Assembly (NCBI GenBank): GCA_050749405.1
Contig: JBOGRD010000006.1
Location: 60,892 to 92,891 of the forward strand
Direction: 5' to 3'
DNA length: 32,000 nt
DNA from: Nitrosotalea sp.
GTDB taxonomy: Archaea > Thermoproteota > Nitrososphaeria > Nitrososphaerales > Nitrosopumilaceae
Under the pieces are notes generated by a model that saw only the letters and a program-made list of their open reading frames with translations, ran no database searches and was not told where the DNA came from. Positions 5,548 to 18,780 of the stretch are shown here, one piece after another; positions within the stretch are counted from its first letter, which is position 1, and each line of letters begins with the position of its first letter. Position numbers and translations under genes: made by a program.

Positions 5548-6144
5548 CTACCAAAACCCTATACTTGGAAATTTCATGCCAAGTATCCTATATGTTAGGT
5601 CAGGCGCATTTGCAAATTTCTTAACAACATCCCAATTTTCGTGTATGATCTTTACGATTTCAGGTTCTACATACCTTTCCCAATCAGTATCCTTTCCCAT
5701 TGCAGATTCGAACATTTTTTGTTTTACAAATGAGGCCGATGTTTCTTTTCTTTGACCAACCCTTGGGTTCAATCCATAAATCCTTAGTACAAAGGCTTCT
5801 GCCTTGTCTCCAGTATACGTAAAGTAATCTGTTTTAATTCCGTCTAAAATTTGCTTTTTGATGTTCCATGAATAAGGTGAAAGTAATGGAGGCATATATT
5901 TTGAAAATGGTGAATAAAACGTGTAATTGGATGATATGGATATAGTGTCTCCAAACACTGATTCAAGCATTTTTTTCCTCAACTCATAACTGAATGGAAA
6001 ACTCTTACTGTTGATTTCATTGCCATCAATTCTGAATATGACTGGAAAAACCCTCACTTCGCTGTCTTTTTTTAATTCATTGATGATTTCAACGTGGGCT
6101 TTGGTAACAGGATTTAGATGAGCAAGGTAGATCGAGACTGTCAA
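5548..6144 (-). CDS. Nucleotidyltransferase-fold protein (NMNAT/cytidylyltransferase-like, degenerate HxGH motif)
   Basis: N-terminal IYLAHLNPVTKAHVEIINEL parallels the GRFQPFHxGH nucleotide-binding motif, and a late SASFVKQKM resembles the ISxTxIR motif. Apparent TTG start. Confidence 0.45.
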   Translation of the reverse strand: MTVSIYLAHLNPVTKAHVEIINELKKDSEVRVFPVIFRIDGNEINSKSFPFSYELRKKMLESVFGDTISISSNYTFYSPFSKYMPPLLSPYSWNIKKQILDGIKTDYFTYTGDKAEAFVLRIYGLNPRVGQRKETSASFVKQKMFESAMGKDTDWERYVEPEIVKIIHENWDVVKKFANAPDLTYRILGMKFPSIGFW

Positions 6145-6217
6145 TTATCTTCTATATTTGTCTGGTATATTTCAATCCTTGATTGAATTTGATCAAAATA
6201 TTCCAATTTGTGGAAAA

Positions 6218-6291
6218 TGGGGACGATGGGACTTGAACCCACGACATCCAGCGCCCGAGGCTGGCAGTCTGCCAAGCTAACCTACGTCCCC
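6218..6291 (-). tRNA. tRNA-Pro (anticodon CGG)
   Basis: Reverse complement folds as GGGGACG/CGTCCCC acceptor, anticodon arm CCAGC-CTCGGGC-GCTGG (CGG with G37), T arm GTGGG-TTCAAGT-CCCAT and discriminator A. No encoded CCA. Confidence 0.9.
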
Positions 6292-6339
6292 GTAGTCTCG
6301 CCAGAATGATAGAATATTATCTTTTCAAATGAAACTTGA

Positions 6340-7179
6340 CTATCCGTATGACTCGTATTTTATCTCGAAGCTTTTGTCAGGTCTCTTGTTTCTCTCAGTT
6401 ACAAATCCTTTTGGAGTCAACACATCGAGACATCCATCTATGGTTCCTTGCCAACCGCAAATGAAAAACACGGTATTTTCCTCGGTAATTTTTTCTCCTA
6501 CCAGTTTCTCAAGCGTCGACATCTCTCCATTTTTTGATTGCAAGAAAGTCTCAACTCTCCCTTTTTGTCCATTCCAAGTTCTGTTGAACCATTCGTCAGG
6601 TCGACTGATGGTTGATCTATATCTGAAGCTCCACTTGTCTTTGCCACGGTCTAGACTCTCGTCTTCAAGATGAGTCAGTTCCTCTCTGTAACCAAGCTCG
6701 TCAACATAGCTTGCACCGTGCAAAACAACTATCTCTCTTTTGCTTCCAGTATCATGAAGGTGACGTGCATAACTGACAAACGGGGCTAAACCAGTACCTC
6801 CACCTAGACAAACAATTCTTCTGTTGTCTGGTTCACCATTTGGTTTCTTTTCTTCAATGGTAAATGCCCCGGTAGGTTTTATCCAAGTAATTTCATCGCC
6901 TTCTTTTGCGCTAAATAAAACTGTTGTAAGGCGACCAGGAAGCGGTTTTCTGACCCATCTTATGTATAATTCGATGTACTTTCTGTTTTCCGGATTTGAG
7001 GCAATCGAATAAGCTCTTCTTATCACCTTGTTCTCTGATTGTACATGGGTACCTAGAGTTAAAAATTGGCCTGGCTTGTATTGAGGCAGTTCTCCTTCTT
7101 TTGGTTTAAATCTGAAAACTGCTAAATCTTCTTTTTGAATTTGAATGTAGGAGACTATTGCTTTGCTTTCTACTACCAC
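6340..7179 (-). CDS. Ferredoxin-NADP+ reductase-type FAD/NAD(P)-binding oxidoreductase
   Basis: RRAYSIAS (RxYS FAD-binding motif), GGGTGLAPF (NAD(P)-binding glycine motif) and a C-terminal aromatic tail YESYG. Confidence 0.85.
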   Translation of the reverse strand: MVVESKAIVSYIQIQKEDLAVFRFKPKEGELPQYKPGQFLTLGTHVQSENKVIRRAYSIASNPENRKYIELYIRWVRKPLPGRLTTVLFSAKEGDEITWIKPTGAFTIEEKKPNGEPDNRRIVCLGGGTGLAPFVSYARHLHDTGSKREIVVLHGASYVDELGYREELTHLEDESLDRGKDKWSFRYRSTISRPDEWFNRTWNGQKGRVETFLQSKNGEMSTLEKLVGEKITEENTVFFICGWQGTIDGCLDVLTPKGFVTERNKRPDKSFEIKYESYG

Positions 7180-7311
7180 GCGAAGAATTCTATTCTGGAT
7201 AGTTAAATATCTTATGCTATTTTGGTCAAGCTGATTTTCTGGGTCACGCTAAACGTTAATAACCTCACAAAAAAAGTTAATGCAAATCAGATTCATACTC
7301 TGATTAAAATC

Positions 7312-7385
7312 GGGCCGGTCGTCTAGCCTAGTAGGATACGCCCTTGGCATGGGTGAGATCGTGGGTTCAAATCCCACCCGGTCCA
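7312..7385 (+). tRNA. tRNA-Ala (anticodon GGC)
   Basis: Acceptor GGGCCGG/CCGGTCC includes the G3:U70 alanine identity pair. Anticodon arm CGCCC-TTGGCAT-GGGTG, T arm GTGGG-TTCAAAT-CCCAC, discriminator A. Confidence 0.92.
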
Positions 7386-7391
7386 CCTTCT
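7370..7391 (+). repeat. att core copy 1 (3' end of tRNA-Ala plus 6 nt): aatcccacccggtccaccttct
   Basis: Exact 22-bp match to 12371..12392. Imperfect homology continues for about 115 more bp on the right of both copies. Confidence 0.85.
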
Positions 7392-7429
7392 TTGTGATAA
7401 GAGACAGGTCACAGTCCGAGACCATTTTT

Positions 7430-8047
7430 CTACACCACTGCCTTGTCTTTTGGCAAAGTCGCAACAAATCGCCAGCCCTGCGAGATTAGCGTCTCTGCTT
7501 GATCAAGTGCCACAACCATCTGAGTTGGTTGCAAGCTGGATTTGTTTGAGTTTGCTTGTTCTTCTTTTGTTACATTGCTGCTTTGCATCTCAAGATCAAG
7601 CAACTCCTCGCTTCGCCTGAACGCTTGACGCATCTCTTCAATCAATGCATCGGGCAAGAGTCCCTTGTTTGTTGTATACTTGGCTTCCATGCTTCCCTTG
7701 TGACCCATGAAGAAGACGCGAAAGTCATGTGCGATCTTTCCCCTTGATTCCGCCACGAGAAGCTGTGTGTCAAAGTAAGCCCTGAACACATACGGTCTCC
7801 ATGCAAACCTTGGTCGTAGTGCATCACGTATGTCTTGGGTTATCTTGCTTGTTGGAAGAAACTTTTTGCTGCTATTGTTTTCCCGGTATGTCTTGTAGTT
7901 TGTATCAGGCGCTATCAATGGCGAGTCCTGTGTCAAGGTTTCACCTCTTGCGAGTCTGTCGTTGAGGTATGCAAGGATCTTTTGTATCCCATTCCCTGTC
8001 AGGAACGTAAAGTATTGGTGTCTTGCCTTTGAAAGCGTCCTTCTCAC
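7430..8047 (-). pseudogene. Tyrosine recombinase (integrase), catalytic C-terminal part only; N-terminus cut off by the IS insertion
   Basis: RPYVFRAYFDTQL and HDFRVFFMGHKGSMEAKYT fit the R...HxxR...H...Y catalytic pattern. There is no ATG start, and the frame stops being readable exactly at the IS inverted repeat (8048). The stop codon lies 45 bp from the tRNA-Ala 3' end. G+C is visibly higher than in the flanking core. Confidence 0.75.
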
Positions 8048-8935
8048 GGTTGTCTAGAAACCATCCACAATAAACAAGAAATTACACACATTCTATGACA
8101 GTTGTAAGCCAGCACACGATACAGCAACTCCCTTGTCATCATGGTACCATTACGTGCCATGATCTCAGAGCCAAACCTTCGCTTTATCACAGAAAATATC
8201 GTCTCACACTTGTTCCTCTGATGATACAGGGTATCATCAAAGGTACTTCTCATCTGTTTTCTGTACCTGCCTCTTGTGCGGTAAGCCCAGCGGCCTTGAT
8301 ACCTTCTGACAGGAATCATCGATAACATATCGCGGTCCCGGATGGACTGGTGCACCCATTCTGCATCGTATCCTGCATCCAGTACAAACATCCGCGGTCT
8401 TGCAAACGATAACACCCGTTCCAGCATTCTGTGGGAAATATCTTATCTCATGAGATACCGTATTGTGTCGTATCACTACCGCTATGATAAGCTGCGTCTC
8501 CATGTCAGAGCCTGCAGAAAGTTTTGTGTACGAGTGCCTCAGGGAACAGCGGTACGTGTAGTACGAGGCGGCATGGCCGTCCTCAAATCCTGTCGCATCG
8601 ACGCCTGCAAATATTTTTCCAGGAGATACCATTCCGATGAATCTGCCTACTGCCAGATGCAGCATGGTGCTGCTCAGTCTGGATGCCACCTTTTGCAGTG
8701 TGGTATAATGCGGAATCCTTGACAGTCCAAGCATCAATACCAGGTCAGAGGAGACCTCAAGCATCTCAACAAACAACTCGTAGCTTTTTGATTCGTACTG
8801 TCTTAATACCAGCATGATAACATGCTGGTGTAGGGTAAAGATGTGGTTCGACTTTTTGTGAAAATAAAGTGGAACCCGCATCTTTGCTAGAATCTGGCGC
8901 ATTATGGAGATGATGCGCTGGTACTTGTTTTTCAT
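8044..8935 (-). CDS. IS transposase (DDE, YREK signature) split over two overlapping frames (8237..8935 and 8044..8427)
   Basis: The upstream frame carries FAGVDATGFE (first D). The downstream frame carries FVLDAGYDAEW (second D) and YHQRNKCETIFSVIKRRFG, an exact Y-x2-R-x3-E-x6-K signature. The frame switch lies near 8400-8450 and is either a programmed frameshift or an inactivating mutation. Confidence 0.8.
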
Positions 8936-9022
8936 GGGGTGCCAAACGGCACCCTACAAAATGGATCTGACTGTTGATTATGATCTACAATGTTATCAAA
9001 ATTGGATGGTTTCTAGACAGCC
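8048..9022 (-). mobile_element. Insertion sequence (IS4/IS5 superfamily), about 975 bp
   Basis: Terminal inverted repeats ggttgtctagaaaccatcc (8048-8066) and ggatggtttctagacagcc (9004-9022) match 18/19, with 16 perfect. They enclose a DDE transposase. G+C is much higher than the surrounding DNA. Confidence 0.85.
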
Positions 9023-9069
9023 CTAAAGTGATCAATTTTTTATAGAAGATTCGTCTATTATGAAGTCCA

Positions 9070-9363
9070 ATGACAACTGAAATCATGATTAAAAGACATC
9101 TGAAAAAGAAAGAATCTTGCGATGTCTTCGAACCCAGCATGAAAACTTTATCGCGAATCACGAAAGTGTTGTTGGAAAAAAAGTATGTTGGTAAGACAAA
9201 TCTGTCACTTGAAACAAATTTGCATTATGGCAGACTTTCTAGACATCTTGATTGGCTTGAAAAAAAACATCTCATAGAACCTATAATTAGAGACAACAAG
9301 ATCAATCTTGTTTTGACCAGTGATGGGGTCCAGTTTGCCTCAATACTCAGTGATGTAATTTAG
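9070..9363 (+). CDS. Small winged-helix DNA-binding protein (archaeal wHTH regulator-like)
   Basis: 97 aa. TNLSLETNLHYGRLSRHLDWLEKKHLIEP...LVLTSDGVQF has the helix-turn-helix plus beta-wing pattern of small archaeal wHTH proteins. Confidence 0.55.
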   Translation: MTTEIMIKRHLKKKESCDVFEPSMKTLSRITKVLLEKKYVGKTNLSLETNLHYGRLSRHLDWLEKKHLIEPIIRDNKINLVLTSDGVQFASILSDVI

Positions 9364-9372
9364 TAATATGCA

Positions 9373-9408
9373 TTTTACTGACAGGTTTGTCAGTAAAACT
9401 GACAAAAA
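9373..9408. promoter_or_regulatory. Candidate operator: 11-bp perfect inverted repeat ttttactgaca/tgtcagtaaaa (4-nt spacer) followed by a third ACTGACA half-site
   Basis: Seen directly at 9373-9383 and 9388-9398, with a third copy aaactgacaaaa at 9396-9407. It sits between the wHTH gene stop (9363) and the start of the secreted protein gene (9440). Confidence 0.5.
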
Positions 9409-9439
9409 TGTAAGCGCGGTTTATTAGCAATTTCCAAAA

Positions 9440-11209
9440 ATGGAAATAACAATGACAAAAGATAATAACAAAAAACTTTCAAACAAACTTCTTGCAACAG
9501 CAATCGCAGTGGTACTTTGCGGTCTAGCGTATGGCGCATCGCATGCGGCTTATGCTATCACGTGTCCGGCTGGTTCATTTTGCGGAACGCTGTACTACAC
9601 TGACGAATCAAACGTCAAGTCGCTTACATTCCAATATACATCCCCGAATCCTCCTGTTTTTGGACCAGTACAACTCATTTATGGCCCAATCTCACCAGGT
9701 GGTGCTGACGGGTTAACCTTCAATCCTCAGAGCGGAAATCTTCTTGTTGGAGACATTCCTGTTTTGTCTCCAGGTCAAGTAATTTCAGAGGTTGATCCAT
9801 CTGCCATGACGCTGGTCACAACAATTCCAACCGGTGGCGACCCCGCTCACTTGATGGTTGATCCTACAGGCCAAACTCTATTCGGTTCAAACGGTGATCC
9901 AGGAAACCTCATATCGGTGGCATTAAGTCCACTAGGCAGTGGCGTTACGCACCCAATCTCTGGTGACGATGCCAATTTTGGTGTTGACACTGTCCAATGG
10001 TCTGATGCAACACATGCTTTCTACACCTCCGACCACTCAGGTGGGTTTTCGGGTGGAGGTGATGTGGGAACAATTGATATGAACACATTCACTACAACCT
10101 GCTTCAAGACCGCTGGTGTGTGCAACTTTTACCCAGGTGCTCATGGAATGTCCTATGACCCGTTCACTGGTGATCTGATGATCTTCGGCGGAGATCACAT
10201 TACTCAAGTAGACACTTCAGGTAACGTAGTCTCCGACCTTGTAGTCCCAGGTGCACTCTTTGATCAGGGAGCAGTAGACGGACATGGACACTTGCTAGTT
10301 GCAGACCAAGGGCAAGGCGCAATCTTCTTCCTTGATTATTCTGTTGACATGCAGGTCAATGGTCCGCACAAAGTTACAGCCCTAGACTCTGTCGGTGGAA
10401 CTGACGATGTAGCTCCACTCATTGGTCCTGGAACAGACCCGACTACAACTGTAACCACATCCGGCCAAATTGGCAATGATATTCCTGGCACAGCAGTGAC
10501 TGATTCTGCTACGGTGACAGGTTCAGGTACAACACCCCTGCCAGATCTAACAGGTACAGTAAACTTCCAGCTTTGTGGTCCTAATCCAAGTGCGTCAACA
10601 ACTCTAAACTGTGCACCAGCAGGTACAGCCTCAATAACTGTTCCTAATGGAGGTACATTTACAGCTGTTTCACCAGCACAAGCTCCGACAGCAGCTGGTT
10701 CATATTGCTGGACTGCCGCGTTTGTGCCTACTTCAGGCTCTCAATATTCGGGCTCTACCAGTACAACAACTACCAACGAGTGCTTTACCGTATTGTCATC
10801 AACAACGGTAGGTAGCATGACCGGTGGAGGAAGTGTCATCGATCCAACCGTGGGCAAGGTAACGCATGGCTTTGAGCTCCAATGTGATGTCACCAAAAAT
10901 CCTAACAGCCTTGAGGTCAACTGGGGCAAAGGAAACAAATTCCACTTGGATAGCTTGACATCGGCCTTTTGTGTAAATGACACAACGATATCGCCGTATC
11001 CTCCTGCTTCAGGATTTGATACCTATGTAGGTACAGGAACTGGCAGCTACAATGGTGTAGCAGGGGCAACAGCCCAGTGGACATTTACGGATGCTGGCGA
11101 ACCAGGCAAGAACGACCATGCCGCTATAGTCATCAAGGATAGTGGTGGCAGTACTGTATTGTCAGTATCTGGCAATCTCAAGAGCGGAAACCAACAAGCG
11201 CACAATTAA
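9440..11209 (+). CDS. Large secreted/surface protein, unknown function (beta-propeller-like N-terminal part, Thr/Gly-rich linkers, conserved C-terminal beta-rich domain)
   Basis: N-terminal signal-like segment KLLATAIAVVLCGLAYGASHAAYA. Low-complexity T/S/G-rich stretches. C-terminal TFTDAGEPGKNDHAAIVIKD...GNLKSGNQQAHN. G+C is clearly above the local background. Confidence 0.75.
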   Translation: MEITMTKDNNKKLSNKLLATAIAVVLCGLAYGASHAAYAITCPAGSFCGTLYYTDESNVKSLTFQYTSPNPPVFGPVQLIYGPISPGGADGLTFNPQSGNLLVGDIPVLSPGQVISEVDPSAMTLVTTIPTGGDPAHLMVDPTGQTLFGSNGDPGNLISVALSPLGSGVTHPISGDDANFGVDTVQWSDATHAFYTSDHSGGFSGGGDVGTIDMNTFTTTCFKTAGVCNFYPGAHGMSYDPFTGDLMIFGGDHITQVDTSGNVVSDLVVPGALFDQGAVDGHGHLLVADQGQGAIFFLDYSVDMQVNGPHKVTALDSVGGTDDVAPLIGPGTDPTTTVTTSGQIGNDIPGTAVTDSATVTGSGTTPLPDLTGTVNFQLCGPNPSASTTLNCAPAGTASITVPNGGTFTAVSPAQAPTAAGSYCWTAAFVPTSGSQYSGSTSTTTTNECFTVLSSTTVGSMTGGGSVIDPTVGKVTHGFELQCDVTKNPNSLEVNWGKGNKFHLDSLTSAFCVNDTTISPYPPASGFDTYVGTGTGSYNGVAGATAQWTFTDAGEPGKNDHAAIVIKDSGGSTVLSVSGNLKSGNQQAHN

Positions 11210-12015
11210 AAAGTTCTAACTACTCCCTCTCTTTTTTATTTTAGTTCACAATGGATATCCAAGGAGAGTATGATCCATAATCTTAGTGGGTTCTAACTTT
11301 GATAATGCAATCAAAAAAGCGGTTCTGCAGAAAGATGAGCTCTAGTCATTCCAAGTATTGCAAAAAAATATCATGTTATAGTACCAGATTTGATATGATA
11401 TGAAAAATCATATTTTGGAAAAGCATTTTGAAAATATAGTTTTAAGTTAATTTTTTAATTAGAGTTGCATGAATAAAATTGAAAATCTTACTGTGACAAC
11501 ACAGAAGCAAGAAACCACAAGCTCAAAAAGCGGCAAAATGCTATGGTGGATGCAAAAAGGCAAAAATGCCATCTATATCCAATTTGTGAACAAGGCTTGT
11601 ATGATATGACTACGATGAACCTTGTTACCTATAGCAGACATGGTAAAGAACAAGACAAGACAACCATAAAAAACTGCAGCGTCATTATCTTCAGCACTAC
11701 TTTTCACAAATTCTTTTCTTATTGATAACATGGAAACAACAATCCAAAACTGATAATCATTTTGACAACTTACTGTGATAGTCACACGGGTAACAAACAA
11801 ATTGTTTGTCGGTTTTCATTTGTATTAAAATAAAAATATTTTTTCTGCGCATAAAACATGTTGAAAGTTTTTTGTACAAGGCTGTTCTAGTGTACAAGCT
11901 GTATGCAATAGGTACCTTTGTTACCTTGATAGGAATGCAACTAGATCTGTATTACCTGAAAACATATCATCTTGATACCTACTTTACTTGGTAGCATGGT
12001 GTAACATATCTAGGA

Positions 12016-12405
12016 ATGGCAATTTTTGCTTTTACTGCGTTTAGCAGATACTTTGCTAGAAAAAAATTTGGAATGCGGCTTGATAGGGGAACAAGACTTG
12101 CACTAGTGGCAGTCTGTTTTATGCTTGGTAGTGGTTTTGCAGTTATTGCGGGTCACACATTTGTCGAACAAAAATTTGATCAAGTGATCTATTTGTCACG
12201 CTTGTTATTTTTGATTGGAATAGTACTTGCAGCAATAGCAACCATGATAAGCTTGAGTGGTACAAATCTTGCTTTTCTTGGGTATTTGTGCATAATTTTG
12301 GCTGTGATTACGGCATTCTTTATAACGTCAACTGTAATAAAATGGAACGTAGGATTGTACTATATGGTCGAGAATCCCACCCGGTCCACCTTCTCTTTGT
12401 ATTGA
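12016..12405 (+). CDS. Membrane protein (about 4 TM helices), unknown function; 3' end reads through the att repeat
   Basis: 129-aa hydrophobic ORF. The last 12 codons (ENPTRSTFSLY) are encoded by the tRNA-Ala-derived repeat at 12371-12392. Confidence 0.4.
   Translation: MAIFAFTAFSRYFARKKFGMRLDRGTRLALVAVCFMLGSGFAVIAGHTFVEQKFDQVIYLSRLLFLIGIVLAAIATMISLSGTNLAFLGYLCIILAVITAFFITSTVIKWNVGLYYMVENPTRSTFSLY
12371..12392 (+). repeat. att core copy 2 (duplicate of the tRNA-Ala 3' end)
   Basis: Exact 22-bp match to 7370..7391. The preceding ggtcgag resembles a degenerate T arm. Confidence 0.85.
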
Positions 12406-12409
12406 GACA

Positions 12410-12510
12410 GGTCACAGTCCGCTACCATTTTTCTCCACTACTGCCTTGTCTTTTGGCAAAGTCGCAACAAACCTACAACCCTGAGAGATTAACGTCTCCG
12501 CTTCGTCAAA
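12410..12510 (-). pseudogene. Remnant of a second integrase gene (last ~30 codons only)
   Basis: The reverse strand translates to DEAETLISQGCRFVATLPKDKAVV, against LDQAETLISQGWRFVATLPKDKAVV* at the end of the 7430..8047 integrase. The original stop is mutated (TAG to GAG) and an upstream in-frame stop lies at 12524-12526. Confidence 0.7.
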
Positions 12511-12578
12511 TATTCCACAATTCCACTAGACCTCATCTGGCTTTGGATGGTAAGACTCATGCGGAGAAGTATGTGTAA
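12504..12578 (+). pseudogene. Possible C-terminal fragment of an rve/DDE-type transposase
   Basis: The tail of ORF 12288..12578 reads IFHNSTRPHLALDGKTHAEKYV*. This resembles the Y-N-x-x-R-P-H-x-x-L-x-x-x-T-P ending of retroviral-integrase-fold transposases; compare HYNFVKPHMGLQNRTPAQK in the 24572 and 27421 genes. Confidence 0.3.
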
Positions 12579-12636
12579 AAATTATAGGCGATAACAAGTG
12601 GCTCACATTGATACAAAATGTCAGTAGGAGAGAAGC

Positions 12637-12753
12637 TTGATTCATCAATGCCCTTTATGTGGAATCAGAATGAATCTTGATTATGATTACCCGTTCAAGT
12701 ATTTTTGGTGTGATGATTGTAGGATCAAAGTTACTAGATATTTGACTAGATGA
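12637..12753 (+). CDS. Mini zinc-ribbon ORF (38 aa, TTG start), possibly a gene fragment
   Basis: (L)IHQCPLCGIRMNLDYDYPFKYFWCDDCRIKVTRYLTR*. The CPxC...CxxC spacing and the CP[LF]C[GN]IRM string match the N-terminus of ORF 29663..29968. Confidence 0.25.
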   Translation: MIHQCPLCGIRMNLDYDYPFKYFWCDDCRIKVTRYLTR

Positions 12754-12805
12754 AACACTATTGATGATAAATGTAATTCATTAACCTAAGGACTACCATA
12801 TCCTT

Positions 12806-12997
12806 ATGCTTGATTTAAGTCAGAGTCTTATTGTAAGAGTTGTTATTACCACCGCAATCCTCTCAATAATTTCCTACTTTGTGATTCGGAAGAATGTAGT
12901 ATCACCAGACCGATTAAAATGGGCTATTCCAGCCCTCTTTGTTGTCTTTGGAATCTCGATACTAATCCAAATTCTGTATGTCCTCAGCACAAAATAA
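12806..12997 (+). CDS. Small two-helix membrane protein, hypothetical
   Basis: 63-aa ORF with two hydrophobic segments. No other support. Confidence 0.3.
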   Translation: MLDLSQSLIVRVVITTAILSIISYFVIRKNVVSPDRLKWAIPALFVVFGISILIQILYVLSTK

Positions 12998-13138
12998 TTA
13001 TGCTTATTAAAAACCGATACCATACTGACAAGTTCAATTGGGTTCAGACTTGTAAGGATTCGAGTCAATACATAATTCGAGTCTTAAATTATGAATGATT
13101 CTATTTCATTGAATCATTTTGATAGAACAAAATCTAGA

Positions 13139-14473
13139 TTACGGAAGTGAAGGTGGAGTTGTTGCTCCAACCGGAGTTGCAGATGCAGTATTAGACGGTT
13201 CACTAGTTCCAACTGAATTAATTGCCGAGACACGATAAGTGTAGGTTGTCAGTGGAAGTACATTTGTGTCCGAATAAGTGGTTCCAGTTTTGCCAGTGTT
13301 TGCAACAAGAGTTGACCACGCATTTCCATTGTCAGTTGATCTCTCAATCATGTATCCTGTTATTGGAGTACCACCATTATCGCTTGGTGCATTCCAGCTT
13401 AGATTGATTTGTAAAAGATTAGCTGTTGCTGTCAAACCGGTTGGTGCAGAGGGAACAGTACTTCGACCGTCAATTACAGATACGTCTCCGGTATAAGCTT
13501 CCGGGCCTGTAGGATCGATCTCTGATGTATAGATCTTGTTTGTCATTGGATTGGCAGCAATTCTACCTGGATTCTTGGCAACTGATAAACTCTGTAATAC
13601 ACTGTTGGTGTTACCATCAATTACGGTCACTGTGTTACTTGTAAAGTCAGTCACGTAAATCTTGTTAGTATTTGGATTTACAGTAACACCGTTAGCACCG
13701 CTTCCAACTGATATTGTACCTACAATACTGTTGGTTGCGCCATCAACCACCTTCACGTCATTACTTGTGGATACGTAGATCAGGTTAGTATTTGGATTTA
13801 CAGTAACACCGTTAGCACCGCTTCCAACTGATATTGTACCTACAATACTGTTGGTTGCGCCATCAATTACAGTTAACATGCCTCCAGTGTCAGCAACGTA
13901 TATCCTATTTGTATTGGCATCTACTGCAACACCTTGAGGTTCAAAAGCTAATTGGACGGTAGATGCTATAGAATTTGTTGAACCATCTATTATTGAAAGA
14001 GCGCGAGTTCCACCACAACCACTGCCAATATTAGAAACATAGATCTTGTTGGTAACTGGATTTACGGCAATGTCTCCCGGTGCATAACTTGATGAAATTG
14101 AGGATACAACGGTATTTGTAGAACCATTTACTACATATATTTCGCAATTGTAATTCCCACCCACATATATCATATTTGTTGAGGGATTCACCCCTAATCC
14201 ATCGATGGCATTGAACACATCTATGTTCCTTACAACAGAATTTGTTAATCCGTTGATTACAGAAACGGTACCAGAATTGAAATTAGCAACGTAAATCAGA
14301 TTTGTATTAGAGTTTACATCTATACCCTCCGGATTTATTCCTACCACTACTGTAGCAACTACGGTATCTGCATAAGCGTTGTGTGAAATCATACCAATTG
14401 ATATTAGAAACATTGATGCAAAAACTACTGTTAGTATACGATTCTTACCGTTGCTACTTTTCAGTAGATTCAA
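13139..14473 (-). CDS. Secreted YVTN-family beta-propeller repeat protein with C-terminal fibronectin type III domain
   Basis: Signal-like N-terminus ILTVVFASMFLISIGMISHNAYA. About eight ~40-aa repeats of the form NPxTNxIYV.N...TVSVIDG.TNSV. C-terminal PSAPTGLTATA...LSWNAPSDNGGTPITGYMIERS...YTYRVSAINSVGTSEPS is a classic FN3 signature. Confidence 0.85.
   Translation of the reverse strand: MNLLKSSNGKNRILTVVFASMFLISIGMISHNAYADTVVATVVVGINPEGIDVNSNTNLIYVANFNSGTVSVINGLTNSVVRNIDVFNAIDGLGVNPSTNMIYVGGNYNCEIYVVNGSTNTVVSSISSSYAPGDIAVNPVTNKIYVSNIGSGCGGTRALSIIDGSTNSIASTVQLAFEPQGVAVDANTNRIYVADTGGMLTVIDGATNSIVGTISVGSGANGVTVNPNTNLIYVSTSNDVKVVDGATNSIVGTISVGSGANGVTVNPNTNKIYVTDFTSNTVTVIDGNTNSVLQSLSVAKNPGRIAANPMTNKIYTSEIDPTGPEAYTGDVSVIDGRSTVPSAPTGLTATANLLQINLSWNAPSDNGGTPITGYMIERSTDNGNAWSTLVANTGKTGTTYSDTNVLPLTTYTYRVSAINSVGTSEPSNTASATPVGATTPPSLP
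13664..13867. repeat. Intragenic tandem duplication: 84 bp identical at a 120-bp period (13664-13747 = 13784-13867)
   Basis: Direct comparison of the two stretches. It encodes the identical peptide VDGATNSIVGTISVGSGANGVTVNPNTN twice. Confidence 0.95.
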
Positions 14474-14786
14474 TGTGTGTATTCCAAGCTCAATACATAT
14501 CTCACTATGTTAAGAATTTCCTATAAGATCAGTACAGAAGTTTTGTAGAATTCAACTTTGCCAACAAATCATAACGTACGATATTACGTAATCATCGGGA
14601 GTTTTTACGAACAAAAGGGGGGCTTTGCCTTTTTTACTCTTTGTCTATGTACTCGTTTGCTGTTTAAAATAAAAAATTGGAGAGGGATTTGGTTTCACCC
14701 AAATCACCCTATGATTTTACGTAGCGGACAGGACCCTGTCTCAAGGATATGGGGACCGAAACACCACACGGTCCACTTTATAAAAA

Positions 14787-15194
14787 TCAAGTTACAGTTA
14801 TGTTAAATGTCGACACGGGTGCAAGCGGATCTATATCGCGTAAATTGTCCCAGACTAGTACCTGAATTTTGTACGTTCCGCTTGCATGTGGCGTCCAAGA
14901 AAGAGCCGCAGTAAGAGTTTGATTGGCGACAAGGGAACCTGTGGCATAATTTAGATCTGACGTTGCTCCCATAGAATCAATTATCTGAACAATGTATGCC
15001 CAGCCTACCTCCTTTTGGCTCACATTTTTCAGTGACGTTTGTAAGTTAAGTTGTTGGTCTACTACTGGAGAATTGATCACTTCACCAAGGGAATTAACTA
15101 TCTTAAAATCAGATACAGAAACTTCGTCATATCCATATGCTGAATTAATTCCAATCACTGCAAGGGCAAAAAGCAATACAAGAAGAAACTTCAT
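14787..15194 (-). CDS. Secreted protein, unknown function (Ig-like/beta-sandwich guess)
   Basis: The internal ATG at 15194 gives the signal peptide MKFLLVLLFALAVIGINSAYG. The longer track ORF (to 15335) would overlap the alba gene and its promoter. Confidence 0.65.
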   Translation of the reverse strand: MKFLLVLLFALAVIGINSAYGYDEVSVSDFKIVNSLGEVINSPVVDQQLNLQTSLKNVSQKEVGWAYIVQIIDSMGATSDLNYATGSLVANQTLTAALSWTPHASGTYKIQVLVWDNLRDIDPLAPVSTFNITVT

Positions 15195-15248
15195 TGCCAG
15201 CAATTCTTGCATTCTTAGATTTAAATTATCCCAAGAGACAGGGGACGC

Positions 15249-15530
15249 ATGTCCGAATCTAGAGAAACTATCTACATAGGCAAAAAGCCACTGATGGCGT
15301 ACGTTACTTCTTCGCTCATACAGTTGGCAAATCAACCAAAGATATCTATCAAGGCAAGAGGGCTAAGCATTGGTCGTGCAGTTGACGTAGCCCAAATAAT
15401 TGCACGAAAGACAGAAAATGCTGGTTACTCAATCGGAAACATCGCGATTGGATCAGAACAACTTCAATCACAAGATGGACGCTCTAGGAATGTTTCTACC
15501 ATAGACATAGAAGTAAAGAGAAACTCTTAG
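15249..15530 (+). CDS. albA: Alba DNA/RNA-binding chromatin protein
   Basis: IYIGKKPLMAYVTSSLIQL...ISIKARGLSIGRAVDVAQIIARK is the conserved Alba core, and the size (93 aa) is typical. Confidence 0.9.
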   Translation: MSESRETIYIGKKPLMAYVTSSLIQLANQPKISIKARGLSIGRAVDVAQIIARKTENAGYSIGNIAIGSEQLQSQDGRSRNVSTIDIEVKRNS

Positions 15531-15566: not shown

Positions 15567-16430
15567 CTATGATTTTGTTTCGTACTTGTTTTCCATCTTC
15601 TTGAATTTAGACAACTCTACAATTTCATTGAACTGATCAAAATCAACAAGCCTATCTTTTAGCTTTGCAGTAGTTCCGGTTTTCCTTAGCTCTTTTAGAA
15701 TTTGCATCGTTGCAAATGTATTGGCATACAATACCGAGAGTGGGTAAAGAATGAGATTGAACCCCATTCTGTGTATCTCACTTGAAGAAAGTAACGGCGT
15801 AGCTCCTCCTTCTATCATGTTTGCCACCAATGGAGCCTTTATTGATTTTCCTATCTTTCTCATTTCATCGACTGATTTAGGAGCTTCTATGAATATGGCA
15901 TCCGCTCCTATATCCTTGTACAAAAGGCCTCGCTCAATTGCAGCATCCAAGCCCTCAGTTGCGCGAGCATCCGTCCTTGCTACCACTATGAAGTCATTAC
16001 TTTTTCTAGCATCCACTGCCGCTCTGAGTTTTTCGCTGTATTCTTCCTTGGCAATCACTTCCTTTCCTGACATGTGTCCGTATCTCTTTGGCCATTTCTG
16101 ATCTTCTAGGAAAATACCGGCGGCCCCAACTGCTTCTAATTCGTTAACAAGTTTCCATACGCTCAAAGGGTTTCCATAACCTGTATCGGCATCAACTATT
16201 ACTGGAACCAAAACAGATTTGCAAATTCGCCTTGCATTTTCTATAGTTTCCGTAGATCCAATAAATCCATAATCAGGCATTCCAAGCAACGCAGCCGAAG
16301 TTCCATATCCAGTTTGAAACATGGCCTCAAACCCTGCTTTTTGGGCTATTCTGGCTGTAATCGCATCATACACCCCAGGAAAAACAAGGGGTTTTGATTT
16401 GTCATATATCAATTTTCTAATGCTTTTCAA
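15567..16430 (-). CDS. Isocitrate lyase/PEP mutase superfamily enzyme (methylisocitrate lyase / carboxyPEP mutase-like)
   Basis: PGVYDAITARIAQKAGFEA, VIVDADTGYGN, GIFLEDQKWPKRYGH and VVARTDA motifs of the ICL/PEPM family. The signature reads KRYGH rather than K[KR]CGH. Confidence 0.8.
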   Translation of the reverse strand: MKSIRKLIYDKSKPLVFPGVYDAITARIAQKAGFEAMFQTGYGTSAALLGMPDYGFIGSTETIENARRICKSVLVPVIVDADTGYGNPLSVWKLVNELEAVGAAGIFLEDQKWPKRYGHMSGKEVIAKEEYSEKLRAAVDARKSNDFIVVARTDARATEGLDAAIERGLLYKDIGADAIFIEAPKSVDEMRKIGKSIKAPLVANMIEGGATPLLSSSEIHRMGFNLILYPLSVLYANTFATMQILKELRKTGTTAKLKDRLVDFDQFNEIVELSKFKKMENKYETKS

Positions 16431-17067: not shown

Positions 17068-18780
17068 ATGGTTAACAGTATTGACAGTGATCTTCTGATT
17101 GTAGGTTCTGGTCTTGCTGGCCTGAGGGCAGCGATTCAGGCAGCAAAGATTGCACCGCATATCAAAATTGCCGTTATTTCAAAATTACAGGTTATGCGTT
17201 CACATTCTGTCTCTGCTGAAGGCGGTACTGCAGCTGTTCTGTATCCTGAAGATGGTGACACAATAGAGTCTCATGTTTATGATACTGTAAAAGGAAGCGA
17301 TTTTCTTGGCGATCAAGATGTAATTGAGAGGCTCGTCAATGAGATGCCCTCTGAGATCTATCAACTTGAACATTGGGGAATGCCATGGTCAAGGAGAGAT
17401 GATGGAAGAGTTGGCCAGAGAAACTTTGGAGGATATAGCTTTCCAAGGGCAACATATGCTCAAGACAAAGTAGGATTTTACGAGATGCAGACTCTGTATG
17501 ACACATGTCAAAAATTTGACAACATTGAGTTCTATAACGAATGGTTTGTTACATCGATAATTCATGACGGCCAAAGATTTTGTGGCATTACCGCCATCGA
17601 GATGTCAAGCGGAACTTTCTATACGTTCAAGGCAAAGGCATTGATTATTGCGACCGGCGGAGCAGGAAGAGTATACAGTTTTTCAACTTATGCTTTAGCT
17701 TCAACTCCGGATGGCCTGGATATGGCCTACCGAGCTGGAATGGCGTTAAAGGACATGGAGTTTGTTCAATTCCATCCTACTGGAATACTGCCTTCGGGAA
17801 TTTTGATTACTGAGGGTGCCAGGGGAGAAGGCGGATATCTTCTTAACAACAAGGGCGAGCGTTTTATGAAAAAATATGCTCCAAGCAAACTAGAGCTTGC
17901 ATCAAGAGATGTCGTATCACGTGCCATGATTACCGAAATCAATGAAGGACATGGCTTCAAACACGATACTGGAGTGGATTGCCTAAAACTAGATTTGAGA
18001 CATCTGGGGAAGGAATTGATTATAAGAAAACTTCCTGCAATACGCGAGATATCGCTGAAATTCTCAGGAATTGACCCAGCTGATGAACCGATAGATGTCA
18101 GACCAGTATGCCATTACATGATGGGCGGTATTCACAGCAACATAGACGGGGCAACTGAAATCCAAGGTATATGGACAGCGGGCGAAGCTGCATGTAACAG
18201 CGTTCATGGAGCAAACAGGTTGGGTGCAAACTCTACGGCAGAGTGCCTTGTGTGGGGTAAAATTACAGGTGAGCTTGCCGCCAAATACATTTTAGAAGAA
18301 AAATCCTCCCCTCCATTTCCATTACATTTGGTTACGACAGAGGAAAAAAGGATCTATGATGGAATATTTCGAGGTACAGGCAGTGTAAATCCATACGAGG
18401 TTAGGCAAGAACTAACAGAGATAATGAATAACAAGTCTTACGTTTTTAGAAATGAAAATGATCTTGTTAATGGACTCAAGTTGGTAAGAGAATTAAGACA
18501 AAAAACATGGAAACATGTAGACGACAAAGCTAAAGAGTATAATACGAACTTTACAAACGTGATGGAACTTGATTCCATGTTTCGTATATCTGAAGTAATT
18601 TTGATGGGTGCAATTTGGAGAAAAGAGTCTCGGGGAGCTCACGCAAGAACTGACTATCCTGGTAGAGATGACAAGAACTTTTTGGTTCACACTCTAGTTT
18701 ACTATGACACAAAAGAGCCAGTTATCAAGACTCATCCTGTCACTATTACTAAATACAAGCCAGTGGAGAGAAAATACTGA
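17068..18780 (+). CDS. sdhA: Succinate dehydrogenase/fumarate reductase flavoprotein subunit
   Basis: N-terminal FAD dinucleotide fold DLLIVGSGLAGLRAA, RSHSVSAEGG (the FAD-linking His region), HPTG, and the HGANRLGANS and ESRGAHAR motifs. Confidence 0.95.
   Translation: MVNSIDSDLLIVGSGLAGLRAAIQAAKIAPHIKIAVISKLQVMRSHSVSAEGGTAAVLYPEDGDTIESHVYDTVKGSDFLGDQDVIERLVNEMPSEIYQLEHWGMPWSRRDDGRVGQRNFGGYSFPRATYAQDKVGFYEMQTLYDTCQKFDNIEFYNEWFVTSIIHDGQRFCGITAIEMSSGTFYTFKAKALIIATGGAGRVYSFSTYALASTPDGLDMAYRAGMALKDMEFVQFHPTGILPSGILITEGARGEGGYLLNNKGERFMKKYAPSKLELASRDVVSRAMITEINEGHGFKHDTGVDCLKLDLRHLGKELIIRKLPAIREISLKFSGIDPADEPIDVRPVCHYMMGGIHSNIDGATEIQGIWTAGEAACNSVHGANRLGANSTAECLVWGKITGELAAKYILEEKSSPPFPLHLVTTEEKRIYDGIFRGTGSVNPYEVRQELTEIMNNKSYVFRNENDLVNGLKLVRELRQKTWKHVDDKAKEYNTNFTNVMELDSMFRISEVILMGAIWRKESRGAHARTDYPGRDDKNFLVHTLVYYDTKEPVIKTHPVTITKYKPVERKY

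Follow-up and report, generated by a model that had tools for sequence, protein, structure and literature searches.

How often, and by what, has the chromosome of an acidophilic ammonia-oxidising archaeon been entered behind one and the same alanine tRNA gene? The question is raised by a stretch of 32,000 nucleotides from Nitrosotalea sp. (GenBank assembly GCA_050749405.1, contig JBOGRD010000006.1, positions 60,892 to 92,891), referred to below as the window, in which tRNA-Ala(GGC) is followed by an island of DNA carrying integrase gene ends and a second copy of the tRNA 3' end. The host is Nitrosotalea-like and belongs to the order Nitrosotaleales in the NCBI taxonomy; the labels of related records vary and include Nitrosopumilaceae. 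An original prediction had read the island as two successive integrations of related tyrosine-recombinase elements into the same tRNA. Judged from its sequence, the locus is very probably a fossil tandem array, in which at least two small integrative elements of the same family would have been inserted at the 3' end of tRNA-Ala(GGC) by site-specific recombination. The supported layout, from left to right, is the tRNA with the left attachment site (attL, 7370-7386), element Y (7392-12372), a middle attachment site (att, 12373-12389), element X (12395-14763), an outer att (14764-14776) and the chromosome. The order predicted originally, namely tRNA, integrase and cargo of Y, att and integrase remnant of X, is borne out by three att copies, by 54 empty sites in relatives and by left arms of Y and X that are independent of each other.

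Three attachment sites behind one tRNA gene

The intact tRNA-Ala(GGC) gene (7312-7387, plus strand; ARAGORN) represents the chromosomal attachment target, i.e., the attB side of attL, and is the same as the tRNA of relatives with an empty site, with identity up to GGTCCAC. The 22-mer AATCCCACCCGGTCCACCTTCT has two exact copies in the window, one at the end of this tRNA (7370-7391) and another at 12373-12394; the first had been placed correctly, whereas the second, noted at 12371, was 2 nt too low. No further copy was found in the window, even with three mismatches allowed, and 100 shuffles gave zero matches. Homology beyond the 22-mer, also claimed before, was confirmed by pairwise alignment, in which the repeat extends ungapped over 137 nt (7370-7506 versus 12373-12509) at 86% identity. 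The sequence 5' of the middle copy is unrelated to tRNA, and an Rfam scan of 7000-15500 returned nothing but the tRNA itself.

The repeat is not, as had been assumed, tRNA 3' end throughout. Next to GGTCCAC, empty sites carry TTTTT and both window copies of the 22-mer carry CTTCT; because empty sites read TTTTT, the tRNA is the source of just 17 of the 22 identical bases and CTTCT is a conserved element end. The attL (7370-7391, plus strand) is hence made up of a 17-nt tRNA-derived core, AATCCCACCCGGTCCAC (7370-7386), and the element end CTTCT. The middle att (12373-12394, plus strand), an exact copy with its core at 12373-12389, is attR of Y and attL of X at the same time. The core of the outermost att, CCACACGGTCCAC (14764-14776, plus strand), matches the tRNA core at 12 of 13 positions, and homology to the flank of empty sites restarts right after it. 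In the junction alignment, the outer junction of the window reads GAAACACCACACGGTCCAC followed by TTTATAAAAATCAAGTTACAG, and empty sites read ...AATCCCACCCGGTCCAC followed by TTTTTTAAAAATCAAGTTACAG. All three att copies stand in register, the third exactly at the resumption of empty-site homology.

The island had been described as about 5 kb of G+C-rich DNA with both att junctions kept. It is indeed inserted, but the array measures 7.4 kb and its third att lies outside the interval considered. The G+C content of 7392-12372 is raised as stated (0.43 versus 0.38 in the flanking chromosome), with values of 0.47 in the integrase fragment, 0.46 in the insertion sequence (IS) and 0.48 in the gene of a 589-aa protein; the statement does not extend to 11210-12372 (0.34) or to element X (12395-14763), which is host-like at 0.385.

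Empty and occupied sites in related genomes

Relatives were compared at 80 loci from species-representative genomes, gathered through the FNR-like gene to the left of the tRNA (6340-7179); they comprise Nitrosotalea and related records with 69-96% protein identity in that gene. A search for empty sites, proposed together with the original prediction, was successful: 54 related loci with readable sequence have tRNA-Ala(GGC) and then a homologue of the open reading frame (ORF) at 14787-15335 (minus strand), the first chromosomal gene past the array, after which homologues of 15567-16430 and 17068-18780 come next. In the closest empty-site relatives, 7-16 nt separate the stop codon of this ORF from the tRNA, and the gap reaches 330 nt at most among the 54 loci; in the window the distance is 7.4 kb. 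The 54 empty sites therefore indicate that the entire segment 7388-14763 (7.4 kb) was inserted. As is characteristic of a tRNA-targeting integrative element, the segment lies between direct repeats of the tRNA 3' end and has no counterpart at the same site in relatives. Two findings that would have spoken against insertion did not appear: none of these relatives carries the 5 kb, and the core occurs just at the tRNA and at element ends.

The description of tRNA-Ala(GGC) as an integration hotspot holds as well, since the site is independently occupied in six of 60 other informative genomes, in addition to a scar in L016. Elements of the window's integrase family are present in L012, L020, L032 and L040, the last being 4.2 kb long with both att copies and without integrase. 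L059 contains a distant integrase of the same family with different arms, and unrelated DNA follows the tRNA in L003, the genome nearest to the window judging by the flanking FNR-like gene (95-96% amino acid identity). The L016 scar, 330 bp between tRNA-Ala and the next gene, has a left arm that is degenerate, the tail of an integrase and a right arm, and shows the end point of the decay seen in element X, the remainder of the element having been deleted. An independent array of two elements of the same family was found at tRNA-Ala(TGC) in L161. The island itself is present in one other assembly only, L001 (GCA_973421715.1), whose sequence stops at window position 12997, shows 100% identity over 12,997 nt and has the same arrangement through the middle att.

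Two side observations concern this site in relatives. The insert of L003 comprises 3.9 kb after tRNA-Ala (about 5852-9705, on the reverse strand of the locus), without a family integrase and without a clear second att copy; by eye, the products of its two large ORFs resemble a spermidine-synthase-like membrane protein (524 aa) and an Hcp-like protein (500 aa), and the record has two tRNA copies around a run of N, i.e., a scaffolding gap. Six related contigs (L007, L008, L011, L014, L043 and L056) end within about 165 nt past tRNA-Ala(GGC), and such breaks would fit strain-variable or repeated DNA at this tRNA in the respective samples.

Conserved element ends and an inverted repeat

The ends of the elements are conserved at the DNA level across the loci of the family. 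We used nhmmer arm profiles built without the window, the left-arm profile from 11 relatives. This profile matches the window at 7388-7505 and 12392-12508, and the right-arm profile has a single match, at 14659-14776. The left arm of Y (7388-7505, plus strand; E 4.5e-34) contains the half-site AAGAGACAGGTCACAGTCCGAGAC (7399-7422) and the integrase 3' end; that of X (12392-12509, plus strand; E 7e-32) likewise contains a half-site, TTGAGACAGGTCACAGTCCGCTAC (12402-12425), and an integrase 3' end. The conserved right arm of X (14659-14763, plus strand; E 4.6e-29) contains the half-site GTAGCGGACAGGACCCTGTCTCAA (14721-14744). Between the left arms of Y and X, identity amounts to 84%; Y reaches 88-89% with L020 and L032 (89% with L032), and X reaches 87% with L020. 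Y and X are thus no closer to one another than to elements of other genomes, which argues against a local duplication and for independent insertions.

The half-sites form an inverted repeat of 24 nt, located on the left 13-36 nt past the core and on the right 20-43 nt ahead of it. In X, 14721-14744 is the inverted partner of 12402-12425 at 20 of 24 positions: TTGAGACAGGTCACAGTCCGCTAC aligned with TTGAGACAGGGTCCTGTCCGCTAC, the reverse complement of 14721-14744, scores 14.0 against a maximum of 10.5 in 300 shuffles, and both half-sites share the X-specific flanks TTGAG...CGCTAC. Pairing of the Y left arm with the same right arm (GAGACAGG) scores 8.0. The repeat is lineage-specific yet matched within each element (CCGAGACAGGTTCCATTCTG in L143, L147 and L153; TCGCTTTCCGC in L161), and five of 18 pairs in reconstructed attP sites are changed on both sides, that is, in a compensatory manner; as the lineages are few, this covariation stands for a small number of independent events. 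The 24-nt inverted repeats are likely to be protein-binding sites of the recombination machinery.

A more far-reaching reading, to which we give rather little credence, is that the attP has an undescribed architecture, with a core of 12-17 nt between arms of about 100 nt and a covarying 24-nt inverted repeat, and that element Y would be a half-site element captured in trans by the integrase of a resident relative. The repeat, partly overlapping the last integrase codons, may then be brought together only in the excised circle, and could be a lineage-specific site for the recombinase or a directionality factor, or a switch between the excised and the integrated state.

As a separate observation, the right arm is a conserved non-coding segment of about 110 nt in the window (14602-14776) and in L040, L143, L147, L153, L161 and L163. 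It opens with AAAATAAAAAATTGGG, similar in look to an archaeal TATA box with B recognition element, and continues with CACCCAAATCACCTTATGATTTTACG, without an Rfam match; a promoter, a small RNA or arm-type binding sites could be candidates for its role. A hairpin in this arm (GGGATTTGG...CCAAATCACCC) was dropped because its pairing, by inspection, is not kept in other lineages, and a sigma-70 promoter and terminator scan was discarded as not meaningful for an archaeon.

Two dead integrases of one family

The truncated integrase of Y (7430-8047, minus strand) has 205 codons and ends in ...LDQAETLISQGWRFVATLPKDKAVV ahead of its stop. Its tblastn match, at 7391-8050, covers residues 230-452 of a relative 452 aa long. 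Of the catalytic residues, K, YxxR, H and Y are still there, and the box I Arg is missing along with the N-terminal domains: the ORF begins with ...VRRTLSKARH, and everything upstream in the alignment with relatives, including the conserved KSGLRPEVLGN, is gone. In addition, a premature TAG stands nine codons ahead of the family stop. Of the X integrase only the last 31 codons and the stop are left (12412-12507, minus strand; ...DEAETLISQGCRFVATLPKDKAVVEKNGSGL), equivalent to residues 416-452 of the same 452-aa relative at 12394-12504 (tblastn) and preceded by an in-frame stop; none of the catalytic residues is retained. Since relatives end in AVVEKNGLGL or AVVEKNGGGQ in the alignment, it is the X copy that keeps the ancestral tail with its stop. 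Integrase 3' ends in both repeat copies had therefore been recognised correctly, but the mutated stop had been assigned to the wrong one: copy 2 is intact and copy 1 has the premature TAG. Similarly, decay had been seen in X, and we add that the Y integrase is dead too, the half with the box I Arg being lost. With both integrases dead, the array is a fossil and is not expected to move by itself.

To which family do these fragments belong? At 90% clustering, 274 relatives of the 205-aa product were retrieved, most of them of Nitrosotalea or Nitrosopumilaceae origin; a single one of them was named 'site-specific integrase' at source, and zero had a precomputed Pfam domain. A family profile retrieved 1803 clusters at 50% identity within 1.84 billion representatives. 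The product of 7430-8047 had been proposed as a tyrosine recombinase recognisable by PF00589. This model missed the 205-aa fragment (E<=0.01), eight gene-called relatives (E<=1) and the 452-aa relative; the assignment itself stands on evidence at the level of the family. We assembled 64 diverse representatives, each found by the family profile at E<=1e-61 and with a mean column identity of 24%. Among them R152, K197, Y278 and Y316 never vary, and conservation is at least 90% at R281 and H308, so the full catalytic set is present in the family, though in neither window copy. PF00589 is matched by 17 of the 64 (best E 7.5e-10), and a broader profile made from all of them (A6) matches the XerA structures 4a8e (E 6.7e-10) and 5hxy (E 1.6e-5).

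Foldseek of an AlphaFold2 model of one relative (P0050) against PDB gave tyrosine recombinases at 29 of the 30 top ranks (XerA, Cre, Tre, IntI, Flp and the integrase of phage Brujita), rank 26 being human topoisomerase I; the best E-value was 6.5e-4 at a probability of 1.00, with low TM-scores of about 0.3. In hhalign, profile A3 and an approximate E. coli XerD sequence gave a weak match (E 0.055) in which the motifs align, box I GLRPEV with GLRVSEL and box II PYVLRAYFDTQLL with PHVLRHAFATHLL. At the family level, the window integrase clearly falls, by these profiles and the predicted structure, into the tyrosine recombinase superfamily, and the modelled two-domain fold fits.

The association with tRNA genes is a property of the family as a whole. 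We collected 80 metagenome loci encoding relatives of the integrase, 66 of which were testable, having at least 130 nt past the gene. In 56 of these 66, the integrase is followed after 19-151 nt by a tRNA gene in convergent orientation, the targets being tRNA-Arg(GCG) (31 loci), Arg(TCT) and Ala(TGC) (seven each), Val(TAC) (three), Ala(CGC) and Lys(CTT) (two each) and others. No relatives of the integrase were found in IMG/VR, GenBank phages or PLSDB plasmids. Public gene calls for the family (P0001-P0120) are mostly 200-350 aa long. Read from the first start codon, the ORFs reach about 450 aa and include an N-terminal region that is conserved (...LLANPDLKRWYDNxARGSPLTA...); many database entries accordingly lack part of the N-terminus. 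In some lineages, e.g., P0005, the integrase ORF reads through into the tRNA 3' end.

Gene content of the two elements

The homology of the Y integrase stops exactly at a probable IS5-family IS of 975 bp (8048-9022, minus strand), with terminal inverted repeats of 20 nt that differ at one position (95%; GGTTGTCTAGAAACCATCCA). Its transposase is broken by one frameshift, which could be a mutation or programmed, into 8237-8935 and 8044-8427. It is recognised by PF01609 (E 2e-9) and NF033579 (E 9e-21 and 7e-15), both NF033579 scores being under the curated cut-off because the ORF is split. The IS has no target-site duplication (flanks CTCAC and CTAAA), and no trace of the missing N-terminal half of the integrase was detected past it or anywhere else in the window at E<=10. 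The position of the IS exactly at the end of integrase homology suggests an IS-associated adjacent deletion. Neither the IS nor 9023-12372 had a blastn match in 162 fetched loci, and no further IS copy was found there.

Past the IS in Y, a winged helix-turn-helix (wHTH) protein of 97 aa (9070-9363, plus strand; PF14947 HTH_45, E 2.9e-6) is a cargo or regulator candidate; homologues of 51% identity occur in two loci with a family integrase, L095 and L097, and its matches to PHROGs were weak (best E 0.008) and to groups of unknown function only. A predicted secreted protein of 589 aa (9440-11209, plus strand), in whose translation we noted a hydrophobic N-terminal segment, is regarded as cargo and matches the post-COAP-1 C-terminal domain NF041523 weakly, below the curated cut-off. 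An ORFan membrane-like ORF of 129 aa (12016-12405, plus strand) runs into the middle att core; it matches nothing but itself among 5.8 billion proteins and may not be a real gene. We also considered a provirus and rejected it: the integrase fragment and the 589-aa and 129-aa products had no PHROG match at E<=0.1, and relatives of the integrase were absent from the virus and plasmid collections named above.

Element X encodes a secreted NHL-repeat and fibronectin-III protein of 444 aa (13139-14473, minus strand; PF01436 and PF00041) as its cargo, together with an ORF with two transmembrane segments. The 444-aa protein is not found in empty sites and has homologues in the family-integrase loci L122, L100 and L089.

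Proposed formation and decay of the array

The proposed course of events is as follows. Each element would have encoded a tyrosine-recombinase integrase of about 450 aa, the geometry being observed and the chemistry presumed. The integrase gene would point at the attachment site, its stop 5-45 nt short of it, and the attP core of 12-17 nt, identical to the 3' strand of the tRNA T-arm and acceptor, would lie between the left and the right arm. Recombination with the tRNA would then restore an intact tRNA and leave a copy of the core at each end. In X, an internal deletion would have taken nearly the whole integrase while both cognate ends stayed. In Y, the N-terminal half of the integrase was presumably lost beside the IS5-family element, which has no target duplication, through an IS-associated deletion. 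The array would now add to its host two large secreted proteins, a wHTH protein and an IS.

Several observations weigh against this reading. The array is known here from sequence alone, which gives no order for the two integrations, and L001, being 100% identical over 12,997 nt, is possibly not an independent witness. The integrase fragment of the window has no match to any Pfam, PHROG or NCBIfam integrase model; the narrow family profile (A2) found nothing among PDB sequences; and the AlphaFold model of P0050 is of moderate quality (pLDDT, the predicted local distance difference test, is 72), its most conserved segment having low confidence. Neither the right-arm profile nor an inverted-repeat search detected a right arm or inverted-repeat partner for Y beside the middle att, whereas L163, with an integrase 86% identical to that of Y at the amino acid level, does have a right arm. 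Y can therefore not count as a clean canonical element, and 9023-12372 may originally not have been contiguous with the Y integrase. Either Y has a non-canonical right end, or the IS deletion joined its left part to the right part of a third element.

The latter possibility, which we consider unlikely, would make three elements of two: Y would be restricted to 7392-8047 and 9023-12372 would be the right part of an element Z, fused to it by an IS5-associated deletion that took the integrase N-terminus, the cargo, the right arm, one att and the left end of Z. The abutment of the IS (8048-9022) on the integrase in mid-gene without a target-site duplication, the absence of the N-terminal sequence past the IS and elsewhere in the window, the lack of a canonical right arm at the middle att while close relatives of the Y integrase have one, and the AT-rich 11210-12372 (0.34), unlike the integrase, would all be accounted for. 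On the other hand, the raised G+C (0.46-0.48) common to the integrase, the IS and the 589-aa gene suggests one source, wHTH homologues occur in loci with an integrase of the same family, and a fourth att remnant was not seen. Moreover, the right end of Z would stay non-canonical, so that an extra element explains little. The lone canonical right arm could alternatively belong to a single 7.4-kb element with an internal att-like sequence, whose outer ends (7370-7386 and 14764-14776) would bracket all inserted DNA. This is very improbable: the internal copy comprises 17 tRNA-identical nt and one more integrase 3' end, complete with stop codon, the right-arm half-site fits the internal left arm (14.0) and not the outer one (8.0), and complete relatives of 4.9-8 kb have one integrase and one left arm.

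That same cognate pairing bears on a local duplication, by unequal crossing-over or slippage, as the source of 12373-12509, since the second half-site matches the right arm at 14721-14744 and the first does not. The like layout and the 22 exact bases of both copies would agree with a duplication; they differ, however, at 14-16%, each is as close or closer to elements of other genomes, and 12510-14763, not found in empty sites, shares segments with other family-integrase loci. A duplication is accordingly, in our estimate, a little more remote even than a single element. Least credible of all is an assembly artefact, i.e., a metagenome contig in which strains that differ in the occupancy of the site were joined. 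The source genome was probably assembled from a metagenome, six related contigs break at this tRNA, and L001 stops at 12997, which would be in keeping with misassembly; yet the repeat copies are 14% different, with 22 exact bases too few to mislead an assembler, all three junctions read as site-specific recombination predicts, and L001 has the same arrangement through the middle att. Independent insertion of at least two elements thus remains the preferred explanation.

Relation to known integrative elements

Integrated elements have been catalogued in 21 thaumarchaeal genomes (Krupovic et al. 2019, PMC6563490). In this survey, 57% of the integrations are in tRNA genes, nearly all in the 3' part, with a median att of 17 bp; a XerC/XerD-like integrase defines the cryptic integrated elements, whose sizes extend from 2.6 to 98 kb. 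Tandem arrays are among its records: it reports NitDev-E2 and NitDev-E3 of Nitrosotalea devanaterra in tandem at tRNA-Arg(GCG), and NitDev-E1 at tRNA-Arg(TCT). A 2021 review likewise mentions tandem integration and loss of the integrase after integration (PMC8371274). The array is of this thaumarchaeal tRNA-targeting type of cryptic integrated element. Such elements share with those of the window a small size, the absence of viral and conjugation genes, a XerC/XerD-like integrase, a short att, the tRNA 3' target, tandem re-use of a tRNA, IS insertions, integrase loss and cargo mostly of unknown function. The differences from the survey entries are the tRNA-Ala target, of which the supplementary tables (PMC6563490) have no instance, and the fact that both window integrases are dead. 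The passages retrieved from the survey by keyword do not include a covarying 24-nt inverted repeat or conserved arms.

The geometry resembles that of pNOB8-type ('type II', non-suicidal) integrases, which also target tRNA genes and whose gene stays intact on integration, with its stop ahead of the core. Here 22 nt (X), 43 nt (Y) or 2-5 nt (L143 lineage) separate the stop codon from the core. The att is 12-17 bp, compared with 40-50 bp for the pNOB8 type in Sulfolobales (PMC8371274). SSV-type 'suicidal' integrases are archaeal tRNA-targeting tyrosine recombinases as well, but their attP lies inside the integrase ORF and the gene is split on integration (PMC7253208). The window family is not of the SSV type, because its ORF ends before the core. 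A split SSV-type gene was rejected for the window itself, where the stop codon precedes the core and no N-terminal part is found at the other end or elsewhere; the truncations stem from the IS and deletion, not from integration. With XerA, XerC and XerD (PDB 4a8e and 5hxy) the family shares the fold and the catalytic residues. It differs from Xer proteins in its length of about 450 aa with an extra N-terminal region, in a Tyr in place of the first His of box II, and in that its genes lie at tRNAs on the ends of mobile elements and are not chromosome-dimer resolvases at dif.

The locus leaves current concepts unchanged, being a case of ordinary site-specific integration followed by decay. It is valuable as a clean example of small elements accumulating and decaying at one tRNA, in which an empty site and a scar series complement the precise junctions. 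It also adds tRNA-Ala (GGC, CGC and TGC) to the recorded targets of thaumarchaeal elements. Pfam fails to see most of the integrase family, which counts about 1800 clusters at 50% identity, so that many such islands will be overlooked by automated annotation.

Complete relatives and their cargo

Complete elements were found at tRNA-Ala genes in all cases, namely L143 (4.9 kb), L163 (6.3 kb), L153 (7.5 kb), L161-E1 (7.8 kb) and L147 (8.0 kb). Every one of them bears an integrase, and they have a single integrase and a single left arm each. A divergent wHTH-like gene of about 200 aa adjoins the integrase in L143, L153 and L163. Among the scanned ORFs of the complete relatives, nothing recognisable as a replication, capsid or conjugation gene turned up. 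Their cargo tends toward one or two very large secreted or surface proteins or defence-like genes, such as SpaA-like prealbumin repeats in L153 and a Mrr-type (Mrr_cat) nuclease in L147. By ferrying large secreted and surface proteins and defence-like genes, these elements contribute to variation of the cell envelope at the strain level. We also noted a 1019-aa protein with C-terminal pentapeptide-like repeats in L161.

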